A stretch of 64,000 nt of DNA, from positions 20,072-84,071 of the forward strand of contig JBMOOQ010000008.1 in the NCBI GenBank assembly GCA_049324435.1. The letters run 5' to 3'. Positions 13,946 through 45,803 of this stretch are shown piece after piece. The position numbers and the translations under genes were made by a program. Each line of letters opens with the position of its first letter. Positions within the stretch are counted from its first letter, which is position 1. The DNA comes from Pseudomonadota bacterium. Lineage in GTDB: Bacteria; Pseudomonadota; Alphaproteobacteria; Rhizobiales; Xanthobacteraceae. The notes under the pieces are model-generated. The model was not told the origin of the DNA, searched no databases, and was given only the letters and a program-made list of their open reading frames with translations.

Positions 13946-15144
13946 ATATCGCGCGCGCCGTACGATTGCCTCGTCTGCTTATCGTTGGCTTCCTCCTGTT
14001 GCCCACGCCGGCTCTGGCGGACGCGAAGGAGACGATTAGGGCGATGGCGCCGCGTGCGCTCGTGCTGGTCACCGATGCAAACGGCAACGAATTGGTCGCG
14101 CAGAACGCCGACGAACCCTTCGTCCCGGCCTCGGTCGCCAAAATCGTCACAGCATGGCTGGCGATGCAGGTGCTCGGCGGCGACTACCGATTCGAGACCC
14201 GCTTCTATCTCGACGACCGACGAGTGCTTTATGTCCGCGGCGGCGGCGATCCATTCCTGATCTCGGAGGAAGTCGCTGAACTTGCCAAAATGCTGGTCGC
14301 GGCCATCGGACCGAAGCCAATCGCCGGCATCGTGCTCGATGCAAGCTATTATCCTGCCGACCTCCGCGTCCCCGGCATCGAGGACACCAACGAATCCTAC
14401 GATGCGCTGAATTCTGCGCTGGCAGTGAATTTCAACACCATCAACGCCGTGCGCAAAGGCAACAGCGTCCGCTCCGCGGAGAAGCAGACGCCAATCACGC
14501 CGCTCGCCATCAGCGAGTTCAAGGCGCGCGGCCCGAACGGGCGCGGGCGCATCAGCCTGAGCCAGGACCCCAAGGTGAGCCTGCTTTATGCCGGCGAACT
14601 GATCGCAGCCTTCATCGACAGGGCCGGCGGCAGCGTGAAGGGCGATATTTCGATCGGGGCTGTCCCCGCGGGCTTGAAGCCGGTCTATGTCCACCGGCAA
14701 TCGCGGCCGCTCTCGGCAATCCTCGCCGATCTGCTGAAGGCCTCGAACAATTACATCGCTAACCAGGTTTTTCTGGAGATCGGCGCGAGGCGCCTGGGCG
14801 CGCCGGTCGGTCTGGAAAAGTCGCTGCACGTGCTGAACGAAGCGCTTGCCGCGCATAATCTTGCGTCGGATATCCGGCTTAAGGAGGGCTCCGGCATCAG
14901 CCGCGACAACCAGTTCACGGCACGCGGCCTCACGCGGCTGCTTGCGCTCTTTGCGCCGCACGCCGCCTTGCTGCGCGGCCCGGACGGCAGTCTGACCAAG
15001 TCCGGCACTCTCGACGGCGTGCGCACGCTCGCGGGCTATGTTGACACCAAGGCGCACGGGCGCGTCCGCGTCGTGATCGCGCTGAAAAGCAATGACGGCG
15101 CGATGCGCTACCGGTTGCTCAAGGCGATCGCAGCGGGGCTGTAG
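13942..15144 (+). CDS. D-alanyl-D-alanine carboxypeptidase/endopeptidase (PBP4, DacB family)
   Basis: SxxK motif (PASVAK), signal peptide; start uncertain: TTG 13942 (RBS GGAGA, TTGA overlap with LysR stop) or ATG 13894. Confidence 0.75.
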   Translation: MNIARAVRLPRLLIVGFLLLPTPALADAKETIRAMAPRALVLVTDANGNELVAQNADEPFVPASVAKIVTAWLAMQVLGGDYRFETRFYLDDRRVLYVRGGGDPFLISEEVAELAKMLVAAIGPKPIAGIVLDASYYPADLRVPGIEDTNESYDALNSALAVNFNTINAVRKGNSVRSAEKQTPITPLAISEFKARGPNGRGRISLSQDPKVSLLYAGELIAAFIDRAGGSVKGDISIGAVPAGLKPVYVHRQSRPLSAILADLLKASNNYIANQVFLEIGARRLGAPVGLEKSLHVLNEALAAHNLASDIRLKEGSGISRDNQFTARGLTRLLALFAPHAALLRGPDGSLTKSGTLDGVRTLAGYVDTKAHGRVRVVIALKSNDGAMRYRLLKAIAAGL

Positions 15145-15192
15145 ACCAAATGCCGGCGCTGCGGTGACGCCATGCGATTGAACGGAGAACCG

Positions 15193-15378
15193 ATGAAGCC
15201 ACTTTTGATTATCGCCGGAGTCGTTTTGCTTGGCCTCGGATTTCTGTTTGCAGGCCAAGGGTCGGGGTTCATTCCCTGGCCTGCGCATAGCTTCATGATC
15301 CGCCAGACCGAATGGGTCTACTATGGCGGAGCAATCGCGTTGGCTGGACTGGCGCTGGTCATCTTCGCACGGCGATGA
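15193..15378 (+). CDS. Small two-helix membrane protein, unknown function
   Basis: RBS GGAGAA-4nt-ATG; hydrophobic MKPLLIIAGVVLLGLGFLFAG ... GGAIALAGLALVIFA. Confidence 0.3.
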   Translation: MKPLLIIAGVVLLGLGFLFAGQGSGFIPWPAHSFMIRQTEWVYYGGAIALAGLALVIFARR

Positions 15379-15560
15379 ACTATCGGTTCAGTCCGAGCGC
15401 GGCGCGGTTCACATTGCGCACGCCGTCGAGGCGATGCGGCACAGCGGCCGCGTTGCACTATCGCGGAAGCTATGCTGGGCGCCGGGCGCCAGCCTCTTCA
15501 ATGCGGCGGCTTACGCGAAGCTGCTCGAACCGGTGCAACCGCGGCGCTGGCGCGAACACA

Positions 15561-16415
15561 TCAGAATCCATCCGGCAGCCCTGACCAGGCATCTGCTTCG
15601 GTCATCGGCCGCGGCAGCATGCTCTGTGCGGAGATATACTTGAGCGCGAGCGCGACACTCGGCTCGATTGCGCGCCGGCCAAGCGGGAGATTTGCGCCGG
15701 AAGGAGTATCCTTCCAGGCTGACTTCACCGCTTCCCAAAACGCCATCAGCGCGTCTCGCTGGTGATCGACTACCGTCTGCTTAGCGACGATGATGTGATT
15801 CACTGGCACGAAGCCGTGTTTGCGCACGAATTCGCGGCCCGCCGCTTCCGCATCGGGATAGACATCGGCAAGATCGGGATCGCCCGGCTTATCGTTGCCG
15901 ACGATGACCGCATCGAGCTCGCCTGACCGCAACATCTCGATCAGCACGCTGCCCGGCTTTGCCCGCGTGGCGAAGGGCGGATCGGAATATTCCGCGACAT
16001 GCGGATCCTCGAAACTGGTCCAGTGAATCTGTTCCGGCGCAATGCCGAAATTTTCCGACAAAATTCCACGCACCCAGGCTCCCGTGGTCTGGCTATAGGC
16101 ACGAACGCCAACCCGCTTGCCCTTCAGATCCGCAGGGCCCTTGATGGCGTCGTTCTTCGCCAGCTTGATCAGGCTGATTTCCTGCGCGCGTGCAGCGACC
16201 GCAGCCGGAATCAGCACCAGCGGCTTGCCAAAGGCCTTGGCCTGCAGAAAAGTGACCAGCGCCATTTCCGAGATGTCGTAGCTGCCCTGACGCACCATCT
16301 GCGCGAACGCTTTGGTAATCGGCGAGACCTCGACGAAAGTGAAATCTGGCAAGGTCGCCAGCCGTTCTTTCAGCAGGCGCGTATGCGGATAGTTTCCAAT
16401 CGCCACACTCAACAC
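15561..16415 (-). CDS. NMT1/THI5-like periplasmic-binding-fold protein without signal peptide
   Basis: 284 aa; resemblance to SsuA/THI5/4,5-dihydroxyphthalate decarboxylase-type fold from sequence pattern only. Confidence 0.4.
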   Translation of the reverse strand: MLSVAIGNYPHTRLLKERLATLPDFTFVEVSPITKAFAQMVRQGSYDISEMALVTFLQAKAFGKPLVLIPAAVAARAQEISLIKLAKNDAIKGPADLKGKRVGVRAYSQTTGAWVRGILSENFGIAPEQIHWTSFEDPHVAEYSDPPFATRAKPGSVLIEMLRSGELDAVIVGNDKPGDPDLADVYPDAEAAGREFVRKHGFVPVNHIIVAKQTVVDHQRDALMAFWEAVKSAWKDTPSGANLPLGRRAIEPSVALALKYISAQSMLPRPMTEADAWSGLPDGF

Positions 16416-25291: not shown

Positions 25292-25933
25292 TCAATGTTG
25301 ACCGATCGTCTCGGTCTCAAAACGCTCGACAAAATACAGGCCGATCCGGCGCGTCAGACTGGCCGCCACGACAGAGGAAACTGCAATCCCAACTGCCCCC
25401 GCGATTGGGGCCGCGAACGATAGCGTTGTCGCCGTCGCTGCCGCCAAGCCGGTCGGAGTCGCACCGCCCATCAGACCGATCACGATCGAACGCATCTTGT
25501 CGCGCTCGAACGGGATGCCGTAGAGATCGCTGAGGCCCTTGACCATTCGAAGAATGACCGCGGTGACACTGACGACGTTCACGGTCGGCATGGGCACGAG
25601 ACCGCCGAGCCCAGCATACATCTTGTGCCGGTCGACGATCCTGAATGCGAGTTGAAGACGCCGCTCCGCCTCTTCTTGGGTCATCGGGGGAAAAATTTCG
25701 AATTTGAGTGTCGCGTCGTCTGCATGAGAGTCACCGGCACTCATATCGTTGGCATTTGCAGGCGGCGGCGTGGGTGGCCACACCTCTGCTTCGACCTGGA
25801 CCGGCTCCTTTGGAGTGGTCGGCTTCGCCGTCACCGATTGCGGCATTGGCGCCTCGGTCCCTGCCTCACCAGGAACGAACCGCAGGCCGGACCCGGCAGG
25901 CTTGATCGCCTTCGGAAGCTGTTTGCGTGTCAT
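25292..25933 (-). CDS. DUF697-like membrane-associated protein (paralog of 34745..35326)
   Basis: Conserved core GLGGLVPMPTVNVVSVTAVILRMVKGLSDLYGIPF aligns with GVGGLIPVPIIDVATVAGIQLQMLRRLSQIYNVPF of the second copy; ATGA overlap with upstream ParA-like gene. Confidence 0.5.
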   Translation of the reverse strand: MTRKQLPKAIKPAGSGLRFVPGEAGTEAPMPQSVTAKPTTPKEPVQVEAEVWPPTPPPANANDMSAGDSHADDATLKFEIFPPMTQEEAERRLQLAFRIVDRHKMYAGLGGLVPMPTVNVVSVTAVILRMVKGLSDLYGIPFERDKMRSIVIGLMGGATPTGLAAATATTLSFAAPIAGAVGIAVSSVVAASLTRRIGLYFVERFETETIGQH

Positions 25934-26574
25934 GCTGCGGCCTGCTGTTGTCCGAGCACCATGTCGAGTTCATCGGCGATCGCAGCAATCTCGCGCGCCG
26001 CGGGCCCCTTCCAGCTGATCAGACTCGGCGTCGCGCCCCACAACGACGCCTCCGGATAGGCCACCCGGTTTTGCATCTCGTTCTGAAGCACCGGAATGCC
26101 AGCCTCGGTGAGCTCGGTCCGGATGTGCCGCGCGATGATCGAATCGCGGGTGGTCTGCGTCAGGAGGCAACGATAGAGCGGCCGCCGTCCGTCGGATCGC
26201 TCGGTGAGGAAACTGATGGTGTCCAGGGTCCGGTCCACGTCGAACGGCGACGGCTTGACCGGGACCAGGAGAAAATCCGACACCGCAAGGCATTCCAGCG
26301 TAGTCTTTGAGCGGAATCCCGGGGTGTCAATGATAACAAGTCCTCCGGCACCGGAGATGCGCCGGGCGGTCTTGGTGGCCTCCTCAGTGGCGTCTTCGAT
26401 GACGGCAACGCCCCCAAGGCTGCGCTCGCGAGCGGCCAACCCCATGATCGAACGCTGCGGATCGGCATCGATGATCGTCGGACGCCGGCCGCGGAGATGC
26501 CAGTAAACCGCGAGACAACTGGCGACCGTACTCTTGCCGCTACCACCCTTCATCGTGGCGATCGTAACGATCAT
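25930..26574 (-). CDS. ParA/MinD-family P-loop ATPase
   Basis: Start at ATG 26574 (MIVTIATMKGGSGKST deviant Walker A, RBS AAGGAGG); 214 aa. Confidence 0.75.
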   Translation of the reverse strand: MIVTIATMKGGSGKSTVASCLAVYWHLRGRRPTIIDADPQRSIMGLAARERSLGGVAVIEDATEEATKTARRISGAGGLVIIDTPGFRSKTTLECLAVSDFLLVPVKPSPFDVDRTLDTISFLTERSDGRRPLYRCLLTQTTRDSIIARHIRTELTEAGIPVLQNEMQNRVAYPEASLWGATPSLISWKGPAAREIAAIADELDMVLGQQQAAA

Positions 26575-26808
26575 CTCACGGCCTCCTTGCCAAAGACCCG
26601 CGCAGTGATTCGTTTGTATGGTAGCCAATTTTGGAAAGGCGCGCCTTAGATTGGAGGCGAGATCAGCGTAGATTTGTGTGCGCTTCCAAGCGCAGCGGAC
26701 CCCATTCTAGCCGCGTGGTCTTAGACGCTGATGAAATGTGTGATTGACTGGCCACCCAAATCGCACCGGCTTCTTTCGTAGAGCCAGCCCGTTGTGCCAA
26801 CCATGCTC

Positions 26809-26850
26809 AAAAAAATATGACGCTGTTTCCGAATGTCTTCGGAAACAGCG
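26809..26850 (-). terminator. Intrinsic terminator of the lanA precursor gene
   Basis: 13-bp perfect inverted repeat CGCTGTTTCCGAA-tgtc-TTCGGAAACAGCG (26821-26850) followed on the minus strand by TCATATTTTTTT (plus-strand A7 at 26809-26815). Confidence 0.6.
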
Positions 26851-26882
26851 TCAAATAGCCTGAAAAGCAAATTGTCCGGAGA

Positions 26883-27032
26883 TTACCAGGCCGGGCAAAC
26901 CGACAGGCCGGTGCAAGAGCCCAGCGTGTAGTTCGCGGAGGTCTCGGTTCCTGCGGCACTTTCCAGCACTTCGTCGGAAACGTCGAAGCTCAGGATCTCT
27001 TCTTCTTTTTGATTGAAGGTGGTGAGGGTCAT
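26883..27032 (-). CDS. lanA: Class II lanthipeptide precursor peptide (LanA), 49 aa
   Basis: Not in the ORF track (<60 aa). ATG 27032, RBS AAAGGAA, stop TAA 26883-26885; MTLTTFNQKEEEILSFDVSDEVLESAAGTETSANYTLGSCTGLSVCPAW; divergent from LanM; own terminator. Confidence 0.6.
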   Translation of the reverse strand: MTLTTFNQKEEEILSFDVSDEVLESAAGTETSANYTLGSCTGLSVCPAW

Positions 27033-27379
27033 GGCGTAATTCCTTTCATCCGCCAGATGCATAGAAAGTTACGAGGAAACTTGATGAATTTCCCCCTGCT
27101 GGCGGACGCAAGGATTGGCTAAATGCGGCGAAAAGTCAATCATTGCTGCCTTTGTCATCACAACGATCCGTTACTCAAAATCCTCATCCCGTGATCATGT
27201 CATTAACGCTTCGTGGCCTGCATTTATAGGCAGTGAATTTGCGGCGGCTGCACCGATTTAGGTTTATAGTCTTAAACTGACACTGAGAGCCCGGAAACGC
27301 GGTGCAAAATGGAAGCTGCCGGGTAACGATCCCGATTTCGTGCGGGAAAAACGTCGTCGGGCCCGCTAGGACTGCGTCA

Positions 27380-30300
27380 ATGGATACTCCTTTAGACCGC
27401 ATAGTGGCTCGCGCTGCGACCATCGACGAGCTTCTGGCCAAACCCGGCTCTGCAATGGGCTGCGATGCTGGCATTGCCGAACGGCGGCTGGCGGCGTGGT
27501 GCCGCTCGGCGGCCAATGGCGATTCGCAGCTATTCGCCAGGCGGCTCGCCCGTGACGGTTTGTCCCTTGAGAAGGCCCGCAACCGGCTGGCGGCTGCCTT
27601 CCCGAGTGCAGGTGGCCGCATGACCGGCTGGTCCGCAGACGCCGCCTGGGTCGAAGCGGGATTATACGGTGATTTCACAGAGCAAAGCTTTCCGGCGCTC
27701 AGCGCCGAACCCCGGCCCTTCCAGCACTTGCTTGGCCCGCTCGTCGCGGCGGCTGAGGCCAGACTCTGGCATGCAGCCGGTGAGGACTTGCGCAAGAACT
27801 TCACGGACCCTGGGCTCGAAAGCTTGCGCTTGATGCTGCTCGACCAGCTATCCGACCTATGCGCCCCGCCGCTGTATGAACGTTTTGCCGCGATGCGCGA
27901 GCGTGGCGAGGATTCACAGACTAGCGCCGCAGACCGGGCGCCTGGTACCGCCGCCTACAGCCGGTTCGTCGCGGACATGCGGTCGGGCGGTTTCCGCATA
28001 CTGTTCGATGAGAAGCCGGTACTGCTGCGTCTGATCGCAATCCTCGCACGGCAATGGATCGATTCGGTCTGCGAATTTGCAATTCGCCTGGACAAAGACC
28101 TCGCGGCCGTCCGTCGCGATCTTGCGGGATGCGATCGGTTGGAGCGCATTCTCAAGGTCGATGGCGGCCTGTCCGACCGTCATAACAATGGCCGGTCCGT
28201 CTTCATCGTTACGTTCGAGGACGGTGTCCGCGCGGTCTACAAGCCGAAGGATCTGCGTCTCGACGTGGCCTGGAACAAGCTGATCGCGCGCTTGAACGGA
28301 TCGAGTCCGCCGCTGGCCTTGCGGGCTGCCCGAACGATCGCTCGTGATCACTACGGATGGACCGAGTTCATCGACCACACCGGATGTGCCGACGAAAGCG
28401 GCTGCGACTTGTACTTCCGCAGAGCCGGAGCCTGGCTCGCGCTGTTTCACTGTTTTGCAGCGACCGACATGCACCAGGAGAATGTCATCGCCGCCGGCGA
28501 CCATCCGGTGCCGATCGATCTTGAGACCATTCTCCAGCCGACCCCGGCGCCGCCGAAGAATCAGGAACCGGAGAGCGAAGCCTTCGATGCCGCAACGCGC
28601 ATGATCGCGGATTCCGTCATGGCGGTCGGCGTGCTGCCGGCTTACGGCAGGGCTCCGGACACCTCGATTTTCGCCATGGGCGCCCTGACGGCCGACTGGA
28701 ATGCCAGAATCAGGCTTGAATGGCTCGACATCAACACCGACGGAATGCGTCCGACACGCGCCAAGGTGGTCGAAAATGCAAACCCGAATTTGCCGCATGC
28801 CGGCGGCCGCTACGCCCGCTTCGGCGAGCACGTAGACGCCTTTCTCGCCGGATTTGAAGACTACGCCCGGTTTCTGTCGCAGCTGTCGCGAGGAGACGGC
28901 CTGGGCGGATTGTTCGACGGATTTTCTGGCGTCACGGTCCGGAAGGTGGTCCGGCCGACGCGCTTTTACGCAATGCTGCTGCAGCGCCTGAAGACCCACC
29001 GCAGCATGGATGATGGCGCGGCGTGGTCGGCCCAGGCGGATTTTATCGCGCGCCTGTCGGACTGGGAGGCGCCGTCCGACCCCACCTGGGGGTTTCACCG
29101 GGCAGAGCGGTCCGCTCTCCTCGCCCTAAACGTTCCGCATTTCGTGGTCCCGAGCGATGGTCACGGGGTCCGAGATTGTGAAGGCCCGGTGGCCACACTG
29201 ACAGGGCTATCGGGGCTAGAGCGCGCGCGCGAGCGGGTCCGCCAATTCGATAAGGCCGAGATCGAATGGCAGCTCGCCGTCATCAAGGCCAACACGGCGG
29301 GAGCGCCGCCGAAAAGTTCAGCGGATGTCGCTCGATTGCTCCTGAGAACGGACGTCCCGATTGCAACGGACAGTTTCGCGTCTGAGGCTGACCGGATCGC
29401 GGCGGAAATATCCGAGCATGCCATCCGTCGCGGCCGGTCGGCGGCATGGATCGGTCTCGACTGGATGGGCGACGCCGAGGCGTTCCAGCTCGCGCCCTTG
29501 GGGCCCGATCTGTACAATGGCTTATCTGGGATTGCGGTTTTCCTGTCCGCGCATGCGTCGGTCACCGGGCACGGCGCCTCAGCGGAGCTTGCGCTCGCAG
29601 CGCTGACCCATTTGCGCAAAAAGCTGAAAGATCGAAACTCCGCACGCTTCGTCCGCTCGCTCGGGATTGGCGGCGCGACCGGGCTCGGATCGCTCATCTA
29701 TGCCCTTGCCGTGATCGCAAAGAATCTTGGGCAAGCTGACATCCTTTCCGATGCGCATGCGGCTTCGGCACTGATGATCGACGAGTTGATTGCGGCCGAC
29801 AAACGGCTCGACGCACTCGGCGGCAGCGCCGGCGCAATTCTGGCATTGCTGCGTCTCTACAGAGATACGCAGTCATCTGATGTGCTGGCCCGCGCGGTCG
29901 CTTGCGGCGAACATCTGCTCCGTCAGGAGAGGACCGGTATCGAGGGCATGCGCAGCTGGGTCGGTATTGGTCTTGGCGAAAAGCCCCTCAATGGCATGTC
30001 ACATGGCGCTGCCGGATTTGCCTATGCTCTTGCCTCGCTGGCGGAAGCGACCGGCCGCAACGACTTTCACCGCGCTGCTTCCGAGTGTCTTGCATTCGAG
30101 AATGCGACTTACAATGCCGATCGGCACAACTGGCCCGACTTGCGTCATAAAGGCGAGCCGGGCTGGGCCTGCCGCTGGTGCCATGGTGCGCCGGGAATCG
30201 GCCTCGCACGTGCCGCCCTGCTGAAACGGAGTGGCATCAATGCAGCGACGCTACAGTCGGACATCCGGAACGCGCTGGTTGGGGTCGAAGAGAACTGGCC

Positions 30301-30571
30301 GACGGAGATCGATACGCTATGTTGCGGCACGCTCGGCAGCGTCGAATTCATGTGCGAGGCCGGCGACGCACTCGGCCGACCGGACGTAAGGCGGATCGCA
30401 GCGCAACGGCTTGCGGCTGTGGTCGAGGCCGCACGCATCAACGGCGACTATCGCTGGAACAGCGGAAGGCGACGTTTCAATCTTGGACTATTCCGCGGAC
30501 TTGCGGGTGTGGGCTACACGCTGTTGCGGCAACGCGATAATGCATTGCCGAATGTGCTGATCTGGGAATAG
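27380..30571 (+). CDS. lanM: Class II lanthipeptide synthetase LanM (ProcM-like, CCG zinc-ligand type)
   Basis: 1063 aa from ATG 27380. C-terminal LanC-like motifs GMSHGAAGFAYALASL, WACRWCHGAPGIGLARAALL, LCCGTLGSVEFM. N-terminal ~600 aa of LanM-dehydratase size. GTG 27302 is an alternative start. Confidence 0.8.
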   Translation: MDTPLDRIVARAATIDELLAKPGSAMGCDAGIAERRLAAWCRSAANGDSQLFARRLARDGLSLEKARNRLAAAFPSAGGRMTGWSADAAWVEAGLYGDFTEQSFPALSAEPRPFQHLLGPLVAAAEARLWHAAGEDLRKNFTDPGLESLRLMLLDQLSDLCAPPLYERFAAMRERGEDSQTSAADRAPGTAAYSRFVADMRSGGFRILFDEKPVLLRLIAILARQWIDSVCEFAIRLDKDLAAVRRDLAGCDRLERILKVDGGLSDRHNNGRSVFIVTFEDGVRAVYKPKDLRLDVAWNKLIARLNGSSPPLALRAARTIARDHYGWTEFIDHTGCADESGCDLYFRRAGAWLALFHCFAATDMHQENVIAAGDHPVPIDLETILQPTPAPPKNQEPESEAFDAATRMIADSVMAVGVLPAYGRAPDTSIFAMGALTADWNARIRLEWLDINTDGMRPTRAKVVENANPNLPHAGGRYARFGEHVDAFLAGFEDYARFLSQLSRGDGLGGLFDGFSGVTVRKVVRPTRFYAMLLQRLKTHRSMDDGAAWSAQADFIARLSDWEAPSDPTWGFHRAERSALLALNVPHFVVPSDGHGVRDCEGPVATLTGLSGLERARERVRQFDKAEIEWQLAVIKANTAGAPPKSSADVARLLLRTDVPIATDSFASEADRIAAEISEHAIRRGRSAAWIGLDWMGDAEAFQLAPLGPDLYNGLSGIAVFLSAHASVTGHGASAELALAALTHLRKKLKDRNSARFVRSLGIGGATGLGSLIYALAVIAKNLGQADILSDAHAASALMIDELIAADKRLDALGGSAGAILALLRLYRDTQSSDVLARAVACGEHLLRQERTGIEGMRSWVGIGLGEKPLNGMSHGAAGFAYALASLAEATGRNDFHRAASECLAFENATYNADRHNWPDLRHKGEPGWACRWCHGAPGIGLARAALLKRSGINAATLQSDIRNALVGVEENWPTEIDTLCCGTLGSVEFMCEAGDALGRPDVRRIAAQRLAAVVEAARINGDYRWNSGRRRFNLGLFRGLAGVGYTLLRQRDNALPNVLIWE

Positions 30572-30588: not shown

Positions 30589-31161
30589 CTATTTTCCGTC
30601 GGACGCGCAAGTGGCGTGGATCACCACCTTGAACATATCGAAGGACTGCACCGTGACCTGACAGAGCCGTGAGTCGCCAAGATCGACTTTGACAACGTCG
30701 CCGGCGTTCAGCAGATGCGGTTTACCTTCGATGTTGAGGGTCACACCGTGGATAGTCGGAACCCCTGTCAGCCCAACGTGAACGCGGCCGCCGGCGACAA
30801 TAAACGACTGGTTGGGCCTCATCACATAGATATTCTCGGACGGCACAATTTCGTCGAGCACGGCCTGGACGTGATTGAGCCGGGTTTGAAGCGTGAGGAT
30901 ACGATCCGCGCGCTGGTTAAGCTCAGCGCTGACCTGCTGGCGCTCCTCACGAAGTTGCTGGATCGTCGCATCGCGCTGCGCCAGTTGGCGTCTCGCCAAC
31001 TCGCGTCCTGTGATGTGACCGATCAATGCCACACCAAGGATCAACAAGGTCTCAATCAGAAGAATGTAAATCCGCCGGCGGCGCGTCAACAGGCGCCACG
31101 CGGCCCGCGAACTCAGGTCCGGCTCTGCGGTGCGACGACCGGATCGCAATTTGTCGGCCAC
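30589..31161 (-). CDS. Membrane-anchored coiled-coil protein with C-terminal beta-rich domain (possible SPFH partner / NfeD-like)
   Basis: One TM helix (IYILLIETLLILGVALIG), heptad-rich segment, beta-rich C-terminus VHVGLTGVPTIHGVTLNIEGKPHLLNAGDVVKVDLG; last gene of the ABC-SPFH operon. Confidence 0.4.
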   Translation of the reverse strand: MADKLRSGRRTAEPDLSSRAAWRLLTRRRRIYILLIETLLILGVALIGHITGRELARRQLAQRDATIQQLREERQQVSAELNQRADRILTLQTRLNHVQAVLDEIVPSENIYVMRPNQSFIVAGGRVHVGLTGVPTIHGVTLNIEGKPHLLNAGDVVKVDLGDSRLCQVTVQSFDMFKVVIHATCASDGK

Positions 31162-31270
31162 GTTAGCGGTCCTCCCACCCCTGCTTTTGCGCCACCGGGG
31201 CGTGCCTCGCAGTCATGCACAAAAGCCTTAGACAATGTCGGGTCATGGCGACGAGCATCCTGACTACTCG

Positions 31271-32731
31271 CTATCGTGTCCCTGGCGGCGGATTCACCTG
31301 GATCTCGGCCGGTTTCATCATCACTTCGGTCGGCTTTCCTGGCCCCTCTGTACCATTCGAGGAGCCGGTTGTTCGTGATCCGCCCGTCAGCCGCGACAGA
31401 ACCGCCTCGTAACTCGATAAATCGAACGGGTTGAAGATCGCGGGCTTTTCCGCAGTCTTATCGTTCTTGGCGGCGGCCTCAGGCGCCGACGATCGCTTGT
31501 CGGGGGCAGGCGGCGTCTGGTTCTGCTGCGGTTGGGCCGCCGCGGGCGGGTTGACCTGCACGGCGGCTCCGGGCTGCACCACCACAGTGGTCGGCGACGA
31601 CACCGTTGGGGCCGCCTGGGGAGCAAAAGCGCGCGGGACCGGCTGGGCCGGAGCATAGGCCCCCGGCACGGTTTCGTTCGGCGGCGGCGGAGGCGCAGCC
31701 GCATCTTTGCGCGGCGGAGTTGCGGCCCCGGCAGGCTGGTCGACGTTGCCCAGAATGATTGGCAGACCGTCCTTGCCGCTGCCAATCACCACGACCTTGG
31801 AATTCGGCGATTGCGACAATGCCAAGGTCGCCTCAATGCCGCGCCAGCGAAGATACGAATCCGTAATACCCTGGCCGACAGTCTGCTGGAACGCCGCGAT
31901 ACCGTTGGCCTCGATCTGCTTGCGTCGCGACTCCTGCGCTTCGCGTTCGACGCGATAGCGATACTCCTGAATCAGGTAGAATTGTTCGGTCTGGCGGTTG
32001 ATCGCGGCAACGATCGCAGGTGGCAGCTCGATACTGAGCACAAGCGTATCGATGATCTGGATCGAGTATTGCAATGCGTCGTTATAGTTTCTGGGATCCG
32101 GCTGCTCCATCGCCTCGGGCTGGACCAGCTTGTTGAGATTGGCGCCGAGACCCTTGCGTGCATTGTCGCGCACTTTTTCCTGGATCGCCTCGCGCGAGGT
32201 ATAGACCTCCTGCGCGGTGTATTGCGAAATAACCTGGCGGGTTTGGCTTCCGATTTCGGGACTGACGACGGATTCGAAATATTGCGGACCGATGAACTTG
32301 TGGAGCACCGCTACTGCATTGTGGAGCAGCTGGTAGCGGATGTTCATCTGGATCGTCACGTTGACACCATCGCGCGAGATCGCGTTGTAGGTCTGAGCCG
32401 TCGATTGCAGACGGAGATTGTAGATAAAAAGATGGTCCCACGGCCAAACCAGGTGAAGCCCCTCACCGCGCAGCTGTTGCGGATTGAGCATGGTGCCACG
32501 GCCAGCGAAGCACCAGCAGTAATAATCGAATGTGTTGAAGCGCTTCCACAGAACGCCGACATGGCCGCTTGGCACCGTGATCACCACAAAGCGCCACAGC
32601 ACCGTGACCGCAAGGAAAAGCACGAGCAGCATGAACGCGAAGCTCGGCAACCGGCGTGTCAGGAAATGCCATGTCCCTCGCCGCCGCACCGGCGGAGGGT
32701 TACCATCGAGTGACTCGGGATACGTTGCCAT
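31271..32731 (-). CDS. SPFH/Band-7 (stomatin/prohibitin/HflKC-like) domain membrane protein with Pro/Ala-rich C-terminal tail
   Basis: N-terminal TM then SPFH core (PSGHVGVLWKRF ... NVTIQMNIRYQ ...); ~150-aa low-complexity P/A/Q tail. Confidence 0.75.
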   Translation of the reverse strand: MATYPESLDGNPPPVRRRGTWHFLTRRLPSFAFMLLVLFLAVTVLWRFVVITVPSGHVGVLWKRFNTFDYYCWCFAGRGTMLNPQQLRGEGLHLVWPWDHLFIYNLRLQSTAQTYNAISRDGVNVTIQMNIRYQLLHNAVAVLHKFIGPQYFESVVSPEIGSQTRQVISQYTAQEVYTSREAIQEKVRDNARKGLGANLNKLVQPEAMEQPDPRNYNDALQYSIQIIDTLVLSIELPPAIVAAINRQTEQFYLIQEYRYRVEREAQESRRKQIEANGIAAFQQTVGQGITDSYLRWRGIEATLALSQSPNSKVVVIGSGKDGLPIILGNVDQPAGAATPPRKDAAAPPPPPNETVPGAYAPAQPVPRAFAPQAAPTVSSPTTVVVQPGAAVQVNPPAAAQPQQNQTPPAPDKRSSAPEAAAKNDKTAEKPAIFNPFDLSSYEAVLSRLTGGSRTTGSSNGTEGPGKPTEVMMKPAEIQVNPPPGTR

Positions 32732-32754
32732 CAGTCGTTCCTCATCGAACGCCT

Positions 32755-34398
32755 TCAGCCGCCCACAGTACGTTCGTCAACGATGCGCCCTTCTTCAAAA
32801 TGAACACGACGCCCCCGCAACTTGGTTTCGTCGAGGTACCGGTCGTCATGGGTGATGACGACCAGCGTCTTGCCGGCGCGCATCAGTTCGGGGAGCAATT
32901 CATCATAGAACTTGCGCCGGTATTCCGGATCCTGCTCCGCCGTCCATTCGTCTAGCAGCATGATGGGTCTGTTTTCCAGCATGCTGACGATCAGCGCGAG
33001 CCGCCTGCGCTGGCCGCCCGAAAGGTCGAGGGTACGGAACTCGCCGTTGGTCAGGCCCGTCTTGTCCTCCAGCCGGAATTTGGCCAGCAGATTTGCCAGC
33101 TCGCCCGGATCGACGTCCGGAATGCCGTAGAGCCGCCGGAACAGATGATAGTCATAGAAAATAGCCGAAAATAGTTCGCGATACTCGTCGCGGGTCGCCT
33201 TGTTGACCCGCTTTCCGTTCAGCAGAACCTCGCCCTCCTGGGGGTGATAAAGACCCGCAAGCACGCGCAGAAAGGTCGATTTGCCGGAGCCATTGCCGCC
33301 GGTGATGAACACGAGCTCGCCGGAACGCAGAGTGAAGTCGATTGGGCCGATATGGAACGCCACGTCGGAATGGCGGTCGACATAGCTGAAAACGATCTGG
33401 CGCATTTCGATCGATTCGAAGCTCTTCGGCGTTGCGACCTCGTCTGTCTCCGACGACACGGACTCGCGCAGCTTCGTTTCGAGGATTTGAATCCGGTCCG
33501 CAGCCGCATTGGCGTTCATCAGAATGGGAATCGACTGCACGAGTGCGAAGCATGCACCGATGACGTAGAGCAGTGCCGCGGTGATCTTGGCGATTGACGC
33601 GCCGCCAAGGCTTTCACTGAATTGCGGAGCAACGAACACCACCGTGCCGAGCAGGATATACATATAGCCTTGCGAATAGGCGATTTGCTTGAAGGTTTCC
33701 GACTGGCTTCTGATTTTGATGTTGGCCGCGGTGCGCGACACATCGACGGCATCGTCAAACAAGGCATCGCTGCGGCTCCGGTTGAGCCTGACCTCTTTGA
33801 AGCCATCGAGAAAATCGGTGATGCGATCGAACAGACGGCGCTCGTGCTCGGCGGCCCGCATTCGCTCCTCAACCAGCTTGCGGCTCCGGAAGTGAAAGAT
33901 CAGACCCGCCATGCTGACGATGAGAACGCTCAGCAGAAAGGCCGCGAGCGACAAATAGGCCACGTAGATCGCCACGAACCCGATCAGGACCGGTCCCTGA
34001 ATCGAGAAGCTGAGCATGTTGCTCGCCTGCGTCAAGATCGCGGCATCGCTCGAAATCGCGGCGATGATGCGCGCGCGGCCGACCTCTTCGATCGACAAAA
34101 GCTCCGAGCGGCGGACATAGTCCATCATTCGCACGCGAAGCTTGTGAATGATGGCCTCGATTTCCGACGTAATCGTCGTCGAGACGTAAACCTGGGTCTT
34201 GAAAAACAGGAACAGCGACACCACGAACAGGGTGGCCGACCAAAGCGCAGCGCCGCGTTCGTCCGAATCCGCCGCGGCCGCGCCGGTGTTGATCGCCGTA
34301 AGAATAAGGGCGTTGCTGATCCCCCCCAGAGCAGACATGAACACCAGCTTCCGCACCGAAGCGTGCATCTCGCGGTGAACAAGCTGGAGGAAGGACAT
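32755..34398 (-). CDS. Fused permease-ATPase ABC exporter of the cyclic-peptide/YojI-McjD type
   Basis: 547 aa; 6-TM N-terminal half, C-terminal NBD with Walker A GGNGSGKST, signature LSGGQRRRL, Walker B MLLDEWTAEQD; no N-terminal C39 peptidase domain. Confidence 0.8.
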   Translation of the reverse strand: MSFLQLVHREMHASVRKLVFMSALGGISNALILTAINTGAAAADSDERGAALWSATLFVVSLFLFFKTQVYVSTTITSEIEAIIHKLRVRMMDYVRRSELLSIEEVGRARIIAAISSDAAILTQASNMLSFSIQGPVLIGFVAIYVAYLSLAAFLLSVLIVSMAGLIFHFRSRKLVEERMRAAEHERRLFDRITDFLDGFKEVRLNRSRSDALFDDAVDVSRTAANIKIRSQSETFKQIAYSQGYMYILLGTVVFVAPQFSESLGGASIAKITAALLYVIGACFALVQSIPILMNANAAADRIQILETKLRESVSSETDEVATPKSFESIEMRQIVFSYVDRHSDVAFHIGPIDFTLRSGELVFITGGNGSGKSTFLRVLAGLYHPQEGEVLLNGKRVNKATRDEYRELFSAIFYDYHLFRRLYGIPDVDPGELANLLAKFRLEDKTGLTNGEFRTLDLSGGQRRRLALIVSMLENRPIMLLDEWTAEQDPEYRRKFYDELLPELMRAGKTLVVITHDDRYLDETKLRGRRVHFEEGRIVDERTVGG

Positions 34399-34495
34399 TG
34401 GAACGCTGCTGCCGGCTACTGTTGCAAGGGGCGCTGCCGTCCCCCAAAGAAAGGCATGGGCCGGTCTCGATACTCAACGATCAGGACCGGCAGGA

Positions 34496-34696
34496 TCAGG
34501 ACCGGCGACGCCATTCCACGTTTCGCGACGGGCCAGTGATAAGCAGCAAGGGCAGCACCACCAGAGGTGTTGTCAACAGCGCAAGCCCGAAGGTTCCGAG
34601 GAATCCCATACGGCGCCCGATGCCGCACAAACCGGTCAACGCGCAAAAGACGATGTATAGCCCTGCCTCGATCATCGGTTTCACTGGAGCAGCCAT
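34496..34696 (-). CDS. Possible small hydrophobic membrane peptide
   Basis: 66-aa ORF between the ABC exporter and DUF697 genes, weak RBS AAAGG, two hydrophobic stretches; may be spurious. Confidence 0.2.
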   Translation of the reverse strand: MAAPVKPMIEAGLYIVFCALTGLCGIGRRMGFLGTFGLALLTTPLVVLPLLLITGPSRNVEWRRRS

Positions 34697-34744
34697 CGAC
34701 CTTTCGATCGTGACTGCCCTCCGGATTGCTACTGACCGTGAAGG

Positions 34745-35326
34745 TCAAGAGTTGGTGCGCGGAGCGGTGGTGGCGTCCGGCGCAGACACCTTGGCGCGCG
34801 AACGATTGTCCCACTTTTCCTTCTGCGCCTTTATGAACTCGCGATAGTCGGGCGGGTTGAAGTCGAGCAAAGTGCCGCCCGATTCGAAGTGCTGGATGAA
34901 CGCCTTACCAATCGCAAAGGTTGCACCCGCTGCGAGCGCAGGCATCACGAAGCCCGAAGCAATCGTCCCGAGCACAGGCACCGACTTCAGCATGCTGGCC
35001 GCGCCGATGCCGCTGGTCGCAGGGATCATCGTCCCGGCCAGGGCTGCGATCAGCGCCTTGCCGCTGTTTTCGGAGAACGGCACGTTATAAATTTGCGACA
35101 GGCGGCGCAGCATCTGGAGCTGAATACCGGCAACGGTGGCGACGTCGATGATCGGGACCGGGATGAGCCCGCCGACGCCGCTCCACAATGCGAAACGATC
35201 AACCAGCTTGTTGGCCATCTCGAGCCGCGCGGCTGGGGTCAATTCCTGAGTTTCGGGCGTCTCGGACTTGGTCTCCGCCTCTGATGTCGTCTTTTGTGCC
35301 ATCCTGGAACCCTTCTCGGCATGCAT
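34745..35326 (-). CDS. DUF697-like membrane-associated protein (second paralog)
   Basis: See 25292..25933; shared GxGGLxPxPxxDVxxVxxxQLxMxxxLSxxYxxPF core. Confidence 0.5.
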   Translation of the reverse strand: MHAEKGSRMAQKTTSEAETKSETPETQELTPAARLEMANKLVDRFALWSGVGGLIPVPIIDVATVAGIQLQMLRRLSQIYNVPFSENSGKALIAALAGTMIPATSGIGAASMLKSVPVLGTIASGFVMPALAAGATFAIGKAFIQHFESGGTLLDFNPPDYREFIKAQKEKWDNRSRAKVSAPDATTAPRTNS

Positions 35327-35535: not shown

Positions 35536-35754
35536 ATGGGGTCGAGACTTCAGAAGGACGTCCCGGTTAGAGCGCGCCGCGCATGGGAGGCGCCTGCCAT
35601 TTCAGAAGTCTCTATCGCAGGCGCGACGAAAGCCGCGGCTCTGGAAGAGCGTCCCGGCGAGGACCGAAATCCCCCGCCGCCCGCGACTCCGGGGGCCAAG
35701 CTCGGTTTCTCGTTCGAAATGTCGTTCCCGTTATCGGTCCGCACCGATAGCTGA
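35536..35754 (+). CDS. Lasso peptide precursor (A); predicted core GAKLGFSFEMSFPLSVRTDS
   Basis: RBS GGAGA-5nt-ATG; leader ends ...PPPATP (Thr at -2), core Gly1 and Glu9; directly upstream of B1-B2-C on the same strand. Confidence 0.6.
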   Translation: MGSRLQKDVPVRARRAWEAPAISEVSIAGATKAAALEERPGEDRNPPPPATPGAKLGFSFEMSFPLSVRTDS

Positions 35755-35837: not shown

Positions 35838-36152
35838 GTGCGGGACCCATCAATCGTGAGTGTGACAATCGACAGCGTGCTGGTTCGCGATCAGTACCTT
35901 GCCGCGACCGATCTGGGCGGTCAGATCGTCGTCCTCAATGTCCACACCGATACCTATGTCAGCCTCAACGCCGTGGCGAGCGACATCTGGACCATGCTTT
36001 CCGAACCGCGCCGCGTGGGCGATATTCTCGAGTTCCTATTGCAAAGGCATGATGTCGATGGCGAAACTCTGTCGCGCGACGTGCTGCCCTTCCTGCAAAC
36101 TATGATCGAGCGGCGGCTGGTGCGGCAGGTGGAAGGAGCTTGCGGGCGATGA
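35838..36152 (+). CDS. PqqD-family RiPP recognition element protein (lasso B1)
   Basis: ~100 aa; PqqD-like pattern LNAVASDIWTML...GDILEFLLQRHDVDGETLSRDVLPFLQTMIERRLV; start codon uncertain (GTG 35838 or internal GTG 35856/35862). Confidence 0.7.
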   Translation: MRDPSIVSVTIDSVLVRDQYLAATDLGGQIVVLNVHTDTYVSLNAVASDIWTMLSEPRRVGDILEFLLQRHDVDGETLSRDVLPFLQTMIERRLVRQVEGACGR

Positions 36153-36556
36153 CGCCTCGGACGAGGCGACGGATATATCTGCGGGAAGCCGCGATCGTGC
36201 TCATGCTGGCACGTCTTGCCGTGCGCATATTGCCGTCAGCGCGCTTGTTGCGCTGGGCCGATCGCCCGATGAAAAAGCTCTGCCGCTTCCCTGGAGATGA
36301 CGTGGCCTGGACCGCCTGGGCGATCGAACATGCGGCGAAACGCCAGGGCGCGGCACTGCAATGTCTGCCGCGCGCCCTTGCTGCGCATGTCATGCTTCGC
36401 CGGCGCGGTATCGCAAGCAGGATTTGCCTGGGCGTTGCGCGACATCGCGACCATCTGATCGCGCATGCATGGATTGAAGTTGGCTCACGAAAGCTGGTCG
36501 GCGGAGACGATTCCGAACGCTTCACGCCTTTGGCCGCCTTTGGCGGCGCCAAATGA
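36149..36556 (+). CDS. Lasso peptide leader protease (B2, transglutaminase-like Cys protease)
   Basis: ATG 36149 overlaps B1 stop (ATGA), RBS GGAAGGAG; Cys/His/Asp context QCLPRALAAHVMLRRRGIASRICLGVARHRDHLIAHAWIEVG. Confidence 0.7.
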   Translation: MTPRTRRRIYLREAAIVLMLARLAVRILPSARLLRWADRPMKKLCRFPGDDVAWTAWAIEHAAKRQGAALQCLPRALAAHVMLRRRGIASRICLGVARHRDHLIAHAWIEVGSRKLVGGDDSERFTPLAAFGGAK

Positions 36557-36574: not shown

Positions 36575-38512
36575 ATGAGCGCCATCGCCGGCATCCTGCG
36601 TTTCGATGACCAGCCGGTCAGCCGGCGCGAACTGGAACGCGCCGCCGCCGCGCTGCGCGCCTTCGGGCCGGATCGATCGGATGTCGCCGTAAGCGGTCCT
36701 GCGGGATTTGCTCACGCGCTGATGCGCATGACGCCGGAGGACCGTGACGACCGCCAGCCCTTCCATGGCGCTGGCGGATCGATGATCACCGCCGACCTTC
36801 GCCTCGATAATCGCGACGACATCATTGCCTGCCTTGGCCTCTCGGCCAGGGACACATCGTCCTTGCCGGACTCCCGGGTGGTACTCAAGGCCTGGGAAAC
36901 ATTCGGCGACCGCCTGTGGCCGATGCTGCGGGGCCCGTTTGCAATTGCGATCTGGGACGCGAACCGCCGCACGCTGACCCTGGCGCGCGATCAACTGGGC
37001 CTGAATGTCATCATGTGGCACCGGAGCCGGCGCTTCTTCGCGTTTGCAACCATGCCCAACGGATTGTTCGCGCTGAATGAGGTGCCCCGCCGATTGAGCG
37101 AGGAAAAGTTTGCGGACTTTCTCGTGCTCAATCATGCCGAGCACGCGACCACTATCTACAAGGACACTTTCCGCGTGCCGCCGGCGCATGTGATGAAAGT
37201 CGATGCGCATGGCAATATCACGCAGTCCCGTTACTGGTCCCCCCAGGACACGCCGCGCGTCAGATTACGGACAGATCAGGATTATGCCGACGGATTGCGC
37301 GAGCGCCTCAATCGCGCCGTCAGACGCCAGATGCGCAGTGCTTATCCGATCGGATGTCTGCTCAGCGGCGGTCTCGACTCCTCGTCGGTCGCCGCCCTCG
37401 CAGCGAGCGCGCTCGCCGAGACCGGTCAGCGTCTCGCGGCTTTCACCGGTGTACCAGGGCCGGACTTCGATGGCGCTGTTCCAGAGGGACACTATGCCGA
37501 CGAAACACCCTATGTCGATGCTATCGCAAGAACGATCGGCAATATCGACGTCACCTATGTCCATAACGATACAACCGACGATCTCGCGCAACTCGACCGG
37601 TTTTTTGTTGCGCTCGAAGGCCCGGTGCGCAATCCGACCAACCTCGGCTGGGTTCTGGCGATCCTGCGTCGCGCGCATGGCGCGAATAGACGCGTCCTGC
37701 TCGGCGGATTGCGCGGCAATTATACGATAAGCTGGACCGGCTGGTCTCAGGCCTTCGATCACCTGATGCACGGCCGCTGCATCACTGCGTTCCGTCAGTG
37801 GCATCTGTATTATCGCCGTACCCCGTATTCACGCTGGAATGCGGTGCACAAACTGTTCATCGAGCCGGCCCTCTCCCGATGGCGCTGCTCGTGGGCGGAT
37901 CGCCGTCACCATCCGCAACGCGTCGCTCCATGGCAGATGCATTCACCGATCCGGCCTGACTTTGCGGCAGCCATGGAAGTGGAGGTGCGCGCGCGGCAAT
38001 CTGGGCACGATTTTCATTATCGCGCGCACCGCGACGAACGCATCCAGGGGCTCCTTCAGGCCGACTATGCCGGCGACTGGCATGCTGCCGAAAAGGCGGT
38101 AACCGGAGTCGAGATTCGCGACCCCACGGCCGACATCGACGTCGTCTCCTATTGTCTCGGGATACCCCCCGAACAGTTTCTTGCCGAAGGCACTGACCGC
38201 TCGCTGATCCGGCGAGCGATGTGGGGTATCCTGCCTGAATGCGTGGTGACGAACCGCCTCCACGGCCTGCAGGATGCGGAATGGTATCGACGGATTGAAG
38301 GCCGCCGCGACGAGATTGCCCGTGAGATCAAGGCCCTAGCGCAGTCTCCGTTGGCACAGCGAGCGATCGATATTCCCCGGCTCGAGCGCGCCCTGTCGCA
38401 TTGGCCAAGCGATGGCTGGAATCGCGCCGAGACATTTACAGAGTACAATCTGATGCTGATGCGCGGCTTAGCTGGCGGCCGCTTCCTGCGATGGTTCGAA
38501 TCGGTGAACTGA
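36575..38512 (+). CDS. Lasso peptide cyclase (C, asparagine synthetase B homolog)
   Basis: 645 aa; N-terminal Ntn-like domain without Cys2 (MSAIAGIL), PP-loop LSGGLDSSSVAA, AsnB-like C-terminal domain. Confidence 0.8.
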   Translation: MSAIAGILRFDDQPVSRRELERAAAALRAFGPDRSDVAVSGPAGFAHALMRMTPEDRDDRQPFHGAGGSMITADLRLDNRDDIIACLGLSARDTSSLPDSRVVLKAWETFGDRLWPMLRGPFAIAIWDANRRTLTLARDQLGLNVIMWHRSRRFFAFATMPNGLFALNEVPRRLSEEKFADFLVLNHAEHATTIYKDTFRVPPAHVMKVDAHGNITQSRYWSPQDTPRVRLRTDQDYADGLRERLNRAVRRQMRSAYPIGCLLSGGLDSSSVAALAASALAETGQRLAAFTGVPGPDFDGAVPEGHYADETPYVDAIARTIGNIDVTYVHNDTTDDLAQLDRFFVALEGPVRNPTNLGWVLAILRRAHGANRRVLLGGLRGNYTISWTGWSQAFDHLMHGRCITAFRQWHLYYRRTPYSRWNAVHKLFIEPALSRWRCSWADRRHHPQRVAPWQMHSPIRPDFAAAMEVEVRARQSGHDFHYRAHRDERIQGLLQADYAGDWHAAEKAVTGVEIRDPTADIDVVSYCLGIPPEQFLAEGTDRSLIRRAMWGILPECVVTNRLHGLQDAEWYRRIEGRRDEIAREIKALAQSPLAQRAIDIPRLERALSHWPSDGWNRAETFTEYNLMLMRGLAGGRFLRWFESVN

Positions 38513-42976: not shown

Positions 42977-42981
42977 CCATC

Positions 42982-43317: not shown

Positions 43318-43384
43318 CGTTTCCTCTCCTTTGTGGCAACCAAGGATCCGCCGCGGGACGCGGCGGTCCCCGTCCGTCGCGTCG

Positions 43385-45721: not shown

Positions 45722-45803
45722 AGTTATCTCTTAGTGTTCTGGGCTGGCTGGCACTTGCGTCGACAGAAGTGCTTGCTGGCTTATCGGACTCGACCGACGT
45801 TCA

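Follow-up and report, generated by a model that had tools for sequence, protein, structure and literature searches.

A predicted minimal class II lanthipeptide locus with a conserved precursor and a CCG-type LanM in an alphaproteobacterium

Characterised lanthipeptides come mostly from Gram-positive bacteria and cyanobacteria. In a stretch of 64,000 nucleotides from a Pseudomonadota bacterium of the Xanthobacteraceae (contig JBMOOQ010000008.1 of assembly GCA_049324435.1, positions 20,072 to 84,071, here called the window), a gene for a 49-residue precursor peptide, lanA, was found divergent from a gene for a LanM synthetase, lanM. The pair is best read as a minimal class II lanthipeptide unit of a Xanthobacteraceae-like alphaproteobacterium, whose peptide would be modified by LanM and exported via a neighbouring ABC transporter operon, and the probability of this whole reading is put at about 0.8. 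The first-pass annotation of the same DNA had proposed a class II lanthipeptide locus composed of a short LanA and a Cys-Cys-Cys LanM, and this is supported by hidden Markov model (HMM) scores, motifs, purifying selection and the conserved pairing of the two genes.

The prochlorosin system (ProcA/ProcM) of marine cyanobacteria shares three properties with the present locus of a soil alphaproteobacterium: a cyclase with Cys + Cys-Cys (CCG) instead of Cys + Cys-His, a bare unit of precursor and LanM without an adjoining peptidase-transporter, and a possible separation of precursor genes from the enzyme (here in the loci L025 to L027 described below). The CCG motif of ProcM-type enzymes has been linked to substrate promiscuity and to Nif11 leaders (PMC10027976; PMC11667668), and the roseocin paper describes the cores of CCG-enzyme substrates as hypervariable (PMC10027976). 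The present locus differs in its 28-residue acidic SDExLE leader, which is not of the Nif11/NHLP type, and in having one precursor per locus with a near-invariant core of two predicted rings, where prochlorosin has dozens of hypervariable cores. The short and different leader, the single precursor and the near-invariant core therefore set it apart from a prochlorosin-type combinatorial system.

In lichenicidin beta and haloduracin beta (LicA2-LicM2 and HalA2-HalM2) the leader likewise ends in a GG-like site with a spacer of about six residues behind it, and in these peptides the hexapeptide left after GG cleavage is removed by a second protease (PMC10006061). LicM2 differs in carrying CHG where CCG is found here. 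The lichenicidin and haloduracin clusters encode a C39-ABC LanT, in lichenicidin together with the subtilisin LanP, whereas neither is present in the window, and both are two-peptide systems with four-ring cores as opposed to the one precursor and two predicted rings of the present locus. The lanA leader segment D-V-S-D-E-V-L-E-x-A-A-G furthermore resembles E-V-S-[DE]-x-E-L-[DE]-x-x-x-G-G, which we take to be the leader motif of the lacticin 481/mutacin II/salivaricin A group. This group belongs to the Firmicutes and has CHG LanMs, LanT(C39) processing and three overlapping rings.

Ring C of mersacidin (C-T-L-T-S-E-C, a string confirmed in the literature) has the same C-T-x-x-S-[E]-C spacing as the end of the lanA core, with a Thr-to-Cys i+5 ring directly after a ring-closing Cys. 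The Glu of mersacidin is essential for activity, and the ring binds lipid II. The peptide of the window has Val45 in this position (C-T-G-L-S-V-C) and hence lacks the conserved Glu of the ring, whereas Glu occupies the equivalent position in 38 of 173 family members (22%). It differs from mersacidin also in being without a C-terminal aminovinyl-cysteine and without a LanD gene.

The LanM synthetase and the lanA gene

The synthetase gene and its domains are located as follows.

27380..30571, plus strand: lanM, class II lanthipeptide synthetase of 1063 residues (Pfam, NCBIfam, motif alignments)
28016..29149, plus strand: dehydratase domain DUF4135 (PF13575), about residues 213-590 (Pfam, 1.6e-95)
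29495..30544, plus strand: LanC-like cyclase domain (PF05147), about residues 706-1055 (Pfam LANC_like, 5e-55; WCHG and CCG)

By every sequence criterion tested, LanM is a class II synthetase. With TIGR03897 ("type 2 lanthipeptide synthetase LanM"), which has a cutoff of 304, the translation reached 739.8 bits, and this score and the two domain matches bear out the proposed enzyme identity. The motifs GMSHGAAG, WCHGAPGIG and LCCGTLG, and with them the LanC-type Cys-Cys-Cys set proposed in the first-pass annotation, were read directly in the 1063-residue open reading frame (ORF). LicM2 was the best match among sequences of solved structure (E = 1.2e-62, residues 195-1061), followed by CylM. Alignments with CylM and LicM2 showed conservation of YKPK, D-x-H-x-E-N (DMHQEN), I-D-x-E-T (IDLET) and R-x-x-x-R-P-T (RKVVRPT), which we take to be the catalytic kinase/lyase motifs of CylM. 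The LanM string "dtlCCGtlg" was aligned to "hslCHGlig" of LicM2; the zinc-ligand His is therefore replaced by Cys, and the predicted zinc site has a set of three Cys ligands. CCG was found in 119 of the 120 closest LanM homologues (58-100% identical), which are all alphaproteobacterial or from soil metagenomes. The gene is without frameshifts and its product is 100% identical to MFZ5690148.1. The label "ProcM-like" used earlier holds for the CCG motif and at motif level only. The leader is not Nif11/NHLP and the window has one substrate gene. HalM2, named alongside ProcM, is in our understanding normally cited as a contrast to ProcM and not as a CCG enzyme.

The precursor gene and the parts of its product are the following.

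26883..27032, minus strand: lanA, 49-residue precursor peptide (translation; dN/dS; family alignment; identical to MFZ5690147.1)
26949..27032, minus strand: leader region Met1-Gly28 (family motif EEIL-x-[FY]-[ED]-V-SDE-x-LE-x-A-A-G, columns invariant or nearly so)
26886..26930, minus strand: conserved core, with predicted (methyl)lanthionine partners Thr36/Cys40 and Thr41/Cys46

The translation of lanA, MTLTTFNQKEEEILSFDVSDEVLESAAGTETSANYTLGSCTGLSVCPAW, agreed exactly with the one given before, and a recount of the last 21 residues likewise returned the seven Ser/Thr and two Cys claimed for them. It is divided into a leader (residues 1-28/29), a variable spacer (29-34) and a conserved core (35-49, YTLGSCTGLSVCPAW). 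The gap to lanM, with its ATG at 27380, is 347 bp with the two genes divergent, as stated previously. The gene had also been presented as unannotated. It is indeed unnamed, but GenBank already calls it: entry MFZ5690147.1, "hypothetical protein", has the exact lanA sequence with the identical start codon, and its neighbour is MFZ5690148.1, annotated as LanM, on a 100,673-bp contig of a Pseudomonadota metagenome-assembled genome (MAG).

Nei-Gojobori dN/dS values of lanA were 0.06-0.46 against ten orthologues from genome and metagenome loci, with most substitutions in third codon positions, and judged from these comparisons lanA is under purifying selection. Each of nine related alphaproteobacterial genome loci (LanM 54-72% identical) has one family member, located 280-420 bp from lanM and divergent, and lanA and lanM were likewise divergent in the metagenome loci examined. 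No second lanA copy was found in the 64-kb window by tblastn and a six-frame scan with the family HMM; the related loci also have one each.

The expression signals of lanA lie on both sides of the gene.

27040..27046, minus strand: ribosome binding site (RBS) AAAGGAA, 7 nt before the lanA ATG (complement TCCTTTC kept in 12 orthologous intergenic regions)
27111..27139, minus strand: putative sigma-70-type lanA promoter, TTGACT (27134..27139), 17-nt spacer, AATCCT (27111..27116)
26809..26853, minus strand: intrinsic terminator of lanA, 16-bp perfect stem (26818..26853), 4-nt loop and T-run TATTTTTTT

Conservation in the 12 aligned intergenic regions is confined to the lanA-proximal ~110 nt, which include the complement of the RBS, a run of C and a GTCAAT block; the GTCAAT block and a conserved A..AT block are putative promoter elements on the lanA strand. 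TTGACT-17 nt-AATCCT (27139..27111) is thus a plausible sigma-70 promoter, implying a 5' untranslated region of ~70 nt; a consensus promoter scanner made no call at this site. The terminator stem begins 29 nt past the lanA stop and has a folding-energy z-score of -5.8 relative to shuffled sequences, and in the orthologous loci a strong hairpin, mostly with a T-run, is found downstream of lanA despite diverged sequence. Both signals had been recognised before with somewhat different dimensions: the RBS is present, but 7 and not 8 nt from the ATG, and the terminator is real, but with a perfect stem of 16 and not 13 bp and a start 29 nt after the stop. The intergenic region is, as claimed, richer in AT, with 50% GC over its 347 bp; the ~65% GC given for the flanks fits only parts of them, the whole window having 61.4%. 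An Rfam search of the 347-bp region gave no match of note, and a regulatory RNA in it was rejected on this ground.

The precursor family and its predicted rings

Close homologues of lanA were sought by a word-index search and more distant ones by a profile search of 1.84 billion representatives. The former returned 37 homologues, none of them named, whose sources are Pseudorhodoplanes, Pseudolabrys and soil metagenomes. The latter returned 1093 clusters (50% identity) at E <= 1e-3, with 197 still retained at E <= 1e-10; every one is a short peptide built on one plan of leader, spacer and core. The leader consensus is E-E-[IL]-L-x-[FY]-[ED]-V-S-D-E-x-L-E-x-A-A-G, the spacer has 5-8 variable residues (mode 6), and the core consensus is [YF]-T-L-[GA]-x-C-[TS]-G-L-S-[VE]-C-P-[GA], with the end 2-3 residues past the second Cys. 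The residue following leader Gly28 varies (GT 57, GS 17 and GA 16 among 186). No match to the lanA peptide was found in Pfam/NCBIfam (E <= 0.01), the Nif11 and NHLP leader families included. The actinopeptins (DUF6229) were rejected as its precursor family because the leader motif differs. Literature searches with the core strings CTGLSVCP, CTGLSECP, TLGACTGL and TLGSCTGL found no paper, and neither was a paper found that connects lanthipeptides with Pseudorhodoplanes, Pseudolabrys or Xanthobacteraceae. The precursors thus appear to form a large, unnamed lanthipeptide family of Alphaproteobacteria, outside Pfam/NCBIfam and the literature searched.

Conservation of the core was counted in 173 family members. 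Thr36 was present in 100%, and position 41 was Thr in 86% and Ser in 14%. Position 44 was Ser or Thr in 86%, Ser39 was Ser in only 32%, and the spacer was without any Ser/Thr in 42 of the 173. Only Thr36, Cys40, Thr/Ser41 and Cys46 are retained by essentially every member, which suggests that two, perhaps three, of the seven Ser/Thr matter. With two Cys, at most two rings can be formed, and as the most economical topology we infer two adjacent rings, Dhb36-Cys40 and Dhb41-Cys46.

The following pathway is proposed. lanA would be transcribed from its own conserved promoter into a short mRNA ending at the strong intrinsic terminator, with lanM read divergently. LanM would recognise the acidic leader (EEILSFDVSDEVLESAAG), and its N-terminal kinase/lyase domain would phosphorylate and eliminate Thr36, Thr41 and probably Ser44, after which the C-terminal zinc domain with its three Cys ligands would join Cys40 and Cys46 to the dehydrated residues. 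Two methyllanthionine rings, 36-40 and 41-46, are expected in the product, lying side by side without overlap. A protease encoded outside the window would remove the leader by cleavage close to AAG(T), and the six-residue spacer is probably trimmed later.

A related leader was met outside the Alphaproteobacteria. A Mycobacterium MAG (L009) has a CCG LanM of 48% identity (2765..5965, plus strand) and two tandem LanA genes (2216..2530, minus strand), followed by a gene for a 624-residue ABC transporter. Its LanAs have the leader Y-D-I-S-D-E-S-L-E-L-A-G-G and an unrelated core (LTPNA.AGSS.WSTIQVSGCTC..). An SDExLE leader ending in GG beside a CCG LanM therefore speaks for recognition of the leader as well as for cleavage close to AAG, and the leader type crosses phyla. 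Other variants were observed within the family. The orphan members L025 (10001..10261), L026 and L027 (…FTLGSCTGLSECPG) have a leader ending in AAAAA, not AAG, and are without a LanM in the sequence covered, which extends 10 kb to one side and ~3 kb to the other; small unknown ORFs and a FecR-like gene lie beside them. The lanA of L109 (14205..14375, plus strand) has shortened rings and core, WTMMCSGVSCPG. In L101 a second, divergent leader-bearing ORF with a CC-containing core (…NMVPPNCCLGEPARSPQ) was found at 13211..13399 on the plus strand.

Export, leader removal and rival readings

An operon of five genes (30589..35326, minus strand) lies directly beyond lanM, with its ABC gene 2.2 kb past lanM, and two further genes related to it lie downstream of lanA.

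34745..35326, minus strand: DUF697 membrane protein, first gene of the operon (Pfam DUF697, 8.4e-16; co-conservation)
34496..34696, minus strand: small protein with two transmembrane (TM) segments, between the DUF697 and ABC genes (hydropathy; a 59-residue gene in the same place in related contigs)
32755..34398, minus strand: ABC half-transporter of 547 residues with TM and nucleotide-binding domains, candidate exporter (TIGR01194, 343 bits, cutoff 286)
31271..32731, minus strand: SPFH/Band-7 (prohibitin/flotillin-type) membrane protein with a Pro/Ala-rich tail (Pfam Band_7, 1.3e-25; PDB prohibitin, 3e-8)
30589..31161, minus strand: cc190, TM/coiled-coil protein, last operon gene (convergent with lanM; co-conserved)
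25930..26628, minus strand: ParA-like P-loop ATPase, downstream of lanA (HMM scans)
25292..25933, minus strand: second DUF697 protein, downstream of lanA (HMM scans)

In other genomes the ParA-like and second DUF697 genes are joined into the transporter operon. The protein cc190 has a TM segment at residues 29-52, a helix of ~90 residues and a beta domain of 80 residues in an AlphaFold2 model (pLDDT 85), and searches by fold and family found no recognisable relative. The ABC protein has the half-transporter architecture without a peptidase domain of the YojI/McjD/SyrD-type exporters (TIGR01194), from which the present case differs in the operon with SPFH, DUF697 and coiled-coil genes and in a closer linkage to lanM than to lasso genes. 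No peptidase domain was found in its 547 residues, in contrast to LanT/PCAT, where an N-terminal C39 domain is fused to the ABC exporter; here there is only a nearby ABC exporter without one. An identity as McjD was rejected, McjD not being among the best 60 PDB matches, and an anti-phage defence reading was likewise rejected since PADLOC gave generic ABC-ATPase matches only. In B. subtilis the flotillin FloA is reported to co-localise with the nisin NisBTC complex (PMC8406302), which makes a cluster-encoded SPFH protein of particular note. Loci of the Pseudolabrys type have DUF5939-guanylate cyclase genes and a gene for a cyclic nucleotide monophosphate (cNMP)-binding protein on the flanks of lanM and the operon (L021-L024, 5007..6404; L109, 3570..5378 and 14462..15670), which hints at cyclic-nucleotide regulation.

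Leader removal is less well accounted for. Pfam scans that covered nearly every sizeable ORF of the 64-kb window detected no Peptidase_C39, no subtilisin (S8) and no LanFEG-type set, in agreement with the first-pass annotation, and no LanI or LanFEG immunity genes were present among the scanned proteins. The peptidases encoded in the window (M20, S13 carboxypeptidase, amidase and a caspase-C14/peptidoglycan-binding protein) were rejected as the leader protease, none being a known lanthipeptide protease. The protease is presumably encoded outside the window, by analogy with prochlorosin systems. The caspase-type (Peptidase_C14) and peptidoglycan-binding protein is encoded at 6289..8088 on the minus strand, 19 kb from lanA, and a protein with the same two domains (6836..9196, plus strand) directly adjoins lanA in L011, where the operon is lacking; this may be a coincidence. 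Export had previously been called unexplained, which is correct in that no LanT lies in the window, but the co-conserved ABC/SPFH operon was overlooked.

On the other side of this operon lies a candidate lasso peptide cluster, which was considered as a possible owner of the transporter.

35536..35754, plus strand: candidate lasso precursor, 72-residue ORF, upstream of B1 (conserved in ~45 loci)
35838..36152, plus strand: lasso B1, PqqD-like RRE (PqqD, 1.3e-16)
36140..36556, plus strand: lasso B2, transglutaminase-like protease (NF033537, 81.7 bits, cutoff 33)
36575..38512, plus strand: lasso cyclase, Asn-synthetase-like (NF033535, 340 bits, below the cutoff of 525)

The N-terminus of the candidate precursor, RR-x-W-E-x-P-x-[VI]..I-G-x-E-T-K, agrees with an RRE leader of the YxxPxL type and is followed by a variable Pro-rich spacer and the conserved x-K-L-G-F-[SA]-F-E-M-[SA]-F-P-[LM]-S-[AV]-R-T-[ED]. 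It gave no match to NCBIfam models. A canonical lasso cleavage site was rejected because the Gly after Thr-Pro ("TPGAKLGF" in the window) is not conserved in the orthologues, and the ring residue is non-canonical, with either Glu8 or Glu9 as the possible ring partner.

Linkage of the operon was investigated in 80 metagenome loci fetched via the ABC protein alone (67-90% identity) and scored for lanM, for lanA by the family HMM and for lasso genes, with counts limited to loci having adequate flank. All 33 loci whose sequence reaches 6 kb or more downstream of the ABC gene carried lanM or lanA, as did 43 of the 45 reaching 4.5 kb or more. Lasso genes were seen in 22 of the 35 loci that extend at least 4.5 kb upstream. 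Among the 18 loci covered on both sides, 11 had lan and lasso genes and 7 had lan genes only, with no locus of lasso genes only and none with neither. The linkage is retained across at least five gene orders, such as lanM convergent right after the operon, the operon and ParA-DUF697 followed by lanA/lanM, ParA-DUF697 elsewhere, and in Pseudolabrys an inverted operon with an SBP gene in between. It is kept at the locus with a cc190 homologue of 46% identity, which is the locus with the shortened lanA core WTMMCSGVSCPG. A more distant homologue of cc190 (38% identity) lies in a region rich in transposons and has no operon beside it, and the linkage therefore has its limits. From these arrangements we conclude that the minimal, movable unit consists of lanA and lanM. 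Its usual partner is the ABC/SPFH operon, which is also the strongest candidate for export or self-protection and may be shared with the lasso peptide; export of the lanthipeptide would most likely proceed by the co-conserved ABC half-transporter with the SPFH scaffold, the TM/coiled-coil protein, the two DUF697 proteins and the ParA-like ATPase.

A number of points weigh against this reading of the locus. Dehydration and thioethers are predictions made from the sequence, and a leader cut after AAG and one after AAGT are both compatible with the alignment. A dedicated protease is absent from the 64 kb, so that maturation is incomplete on paper. The lanA-lanM pair of the L011 genome has no operon within 10 kb and lies between the caspase-type protein and cytochrome bd genes, and the lanA copies of L025 to L027 have no lanM in the flanks covered. 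Since the sampled loci are fairly close relatives, the linkage could partly be due to shared ancestry and inherited synteny. The TIGR01194 family includes exporters of lasso and cyclic peptides, and the operon, divergent from the lasso cluster, may serve that cluster too, or instead. That the operon belongs to the lasso cluster outright, as a McjD/YojI-type exporter and immunity pump, with the lanthipeptide exported from elsewhere, for example by a distant C39-ABC transporter such as prochlorosins use, is considered somewhat unlikely. The operon starts only 210 bp from the candidate lasso precursor and divergent from it, its transporter belongs to a cyclic-peptide exporter family and scored 340 bits with PRK10522 (YojI), below the equivalog cutoff of 604, lasso genes flank the operon in the 22 of 35 loci mentioned, and a peptidase-domain transporter, as expected with a GG-type leader, is absent. 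However, the operon occurs without lasso genes in the other 13 of these 35 loci and without lanM/lanA in none of the 33 with at least 6 kb downstream, the fully covered loci are lan-only in seven cases and lasso-only in none, and McjD is missing from the best 60 PDB matches of the ABC protein.

Two further alternatives concern the peptide itself. That the small ORF arose by chance or has decayed and is no LanM substrate, or that the locus is a silent remnant, is very improbable. Its small size and the mere label of hypothetical protein in GenBank would allow it, but the comparative data already contradict it: dN/dS is well below 1 in every comparison, the RBS, promoter and terminator are kept in orthologues, an intact LanM lies divergent from it in every one of the loci compared (54-72% LanM identity), and LanM itself has no frameshifts and complete catalytic motifs. 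lanA is a real gene because purifying selection, the conserved RBS, promoter block and terminator, and the constant pairing with LanM all point to it. As to bioactivity, the product may not be a secreted antibiotic; it could be a conserved two-ring signal, a morphogen or a membrane/envelope factor with the SPFH, DUF697 and ParA-like proteins as its partners or target, which is judged unlikely. The core [YF]TL[GA]xC[TS]GLS[VE]CP is unusually uniform over more than 1000 sequence clusters, in contrast to the hypervariable cores of CCG-enzyme substrates (PMC10027976), no LanFEG/LanI immunity genes were found in the window, and the host is Gram-negative, all in favour of such a physiological role. 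Against it, the conserved gene set includes an ABC exporter of a peptide-export family, and ~22% of the family carry C-T-x-x-S-E-C with the spacing of the lipid II-binding ring of mersacidin. The reading preferred here is still that of a lanthipeptide modified by LanM and exported via the ABC operon.

Wider relevance and other features of the window

LanM was already annotated and lanA already called, without a name, in GenBank, and the current understanding of lanthipeptides is not overturned by the present locus. Alphaproteobacterial lanthipeptide precursors can now be recognised in more than 1000 sequence clusters, for the most part from soil metagenomes, and the compact core of two predicted rings together with the short leader makes the peptide an easy target for heterologous expression. 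A CCG LanM with one conserved substrate runs against the usual link of CCG with promiscuity. The SPFH/ABC/DUF697 linkage offers a genetic handle on LanT-free peptide export by Gram-negative producers and on flotillin-type scaffolds in the biosynthesis of ribosomally made peptides that carry post-translational modifications (RiPPs). To our knowledge, a role of flotillin in RiPP biosynthesis has so far been backed only by microscopy of the nisin machinery. Points for specialists are the size and uniformity of the family, the single-substrate CCG LanM, the linkage to SPFH, ABC, DUF697 and ParA-like genes, and the lasso neighbour. As a tentative extension, which we regard as possible but doubtful, the lan genes may be part of a larger, previously undescribed membrane-microdomain machine encoded by the cluster (DUF697, small TM protein, ABC, SPFH, TM-coiled-coil, ParA-like and second DUF697) that exports, or protects against, ribosomal peptides in Gram-negatives and is perhaps shared with the lasso peptide; the product would then be a two-ring peptide, widespread and near-invariant among soil Xanthobacteraceae, that has a specific and conserved target.

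Two other features of the window were noted. A haem-uptake set at 42458..48978, unrelated to the lan locus, comprises ChuX/HutX, a TonB-dependent receptor, a periplasmic binding protein, a FecCD permease and an ABC ATPase. At 56458..57270 on the minus strand, beside molybdopterin oxidoreductase genes (53231..56203), a 270-residue ORF combines an N-terminal YdaS/Cro-type helix-turn-helix match with a nitrate-reductase delta (chaperone) domain, and this may be an over-extended call or a real fusion.

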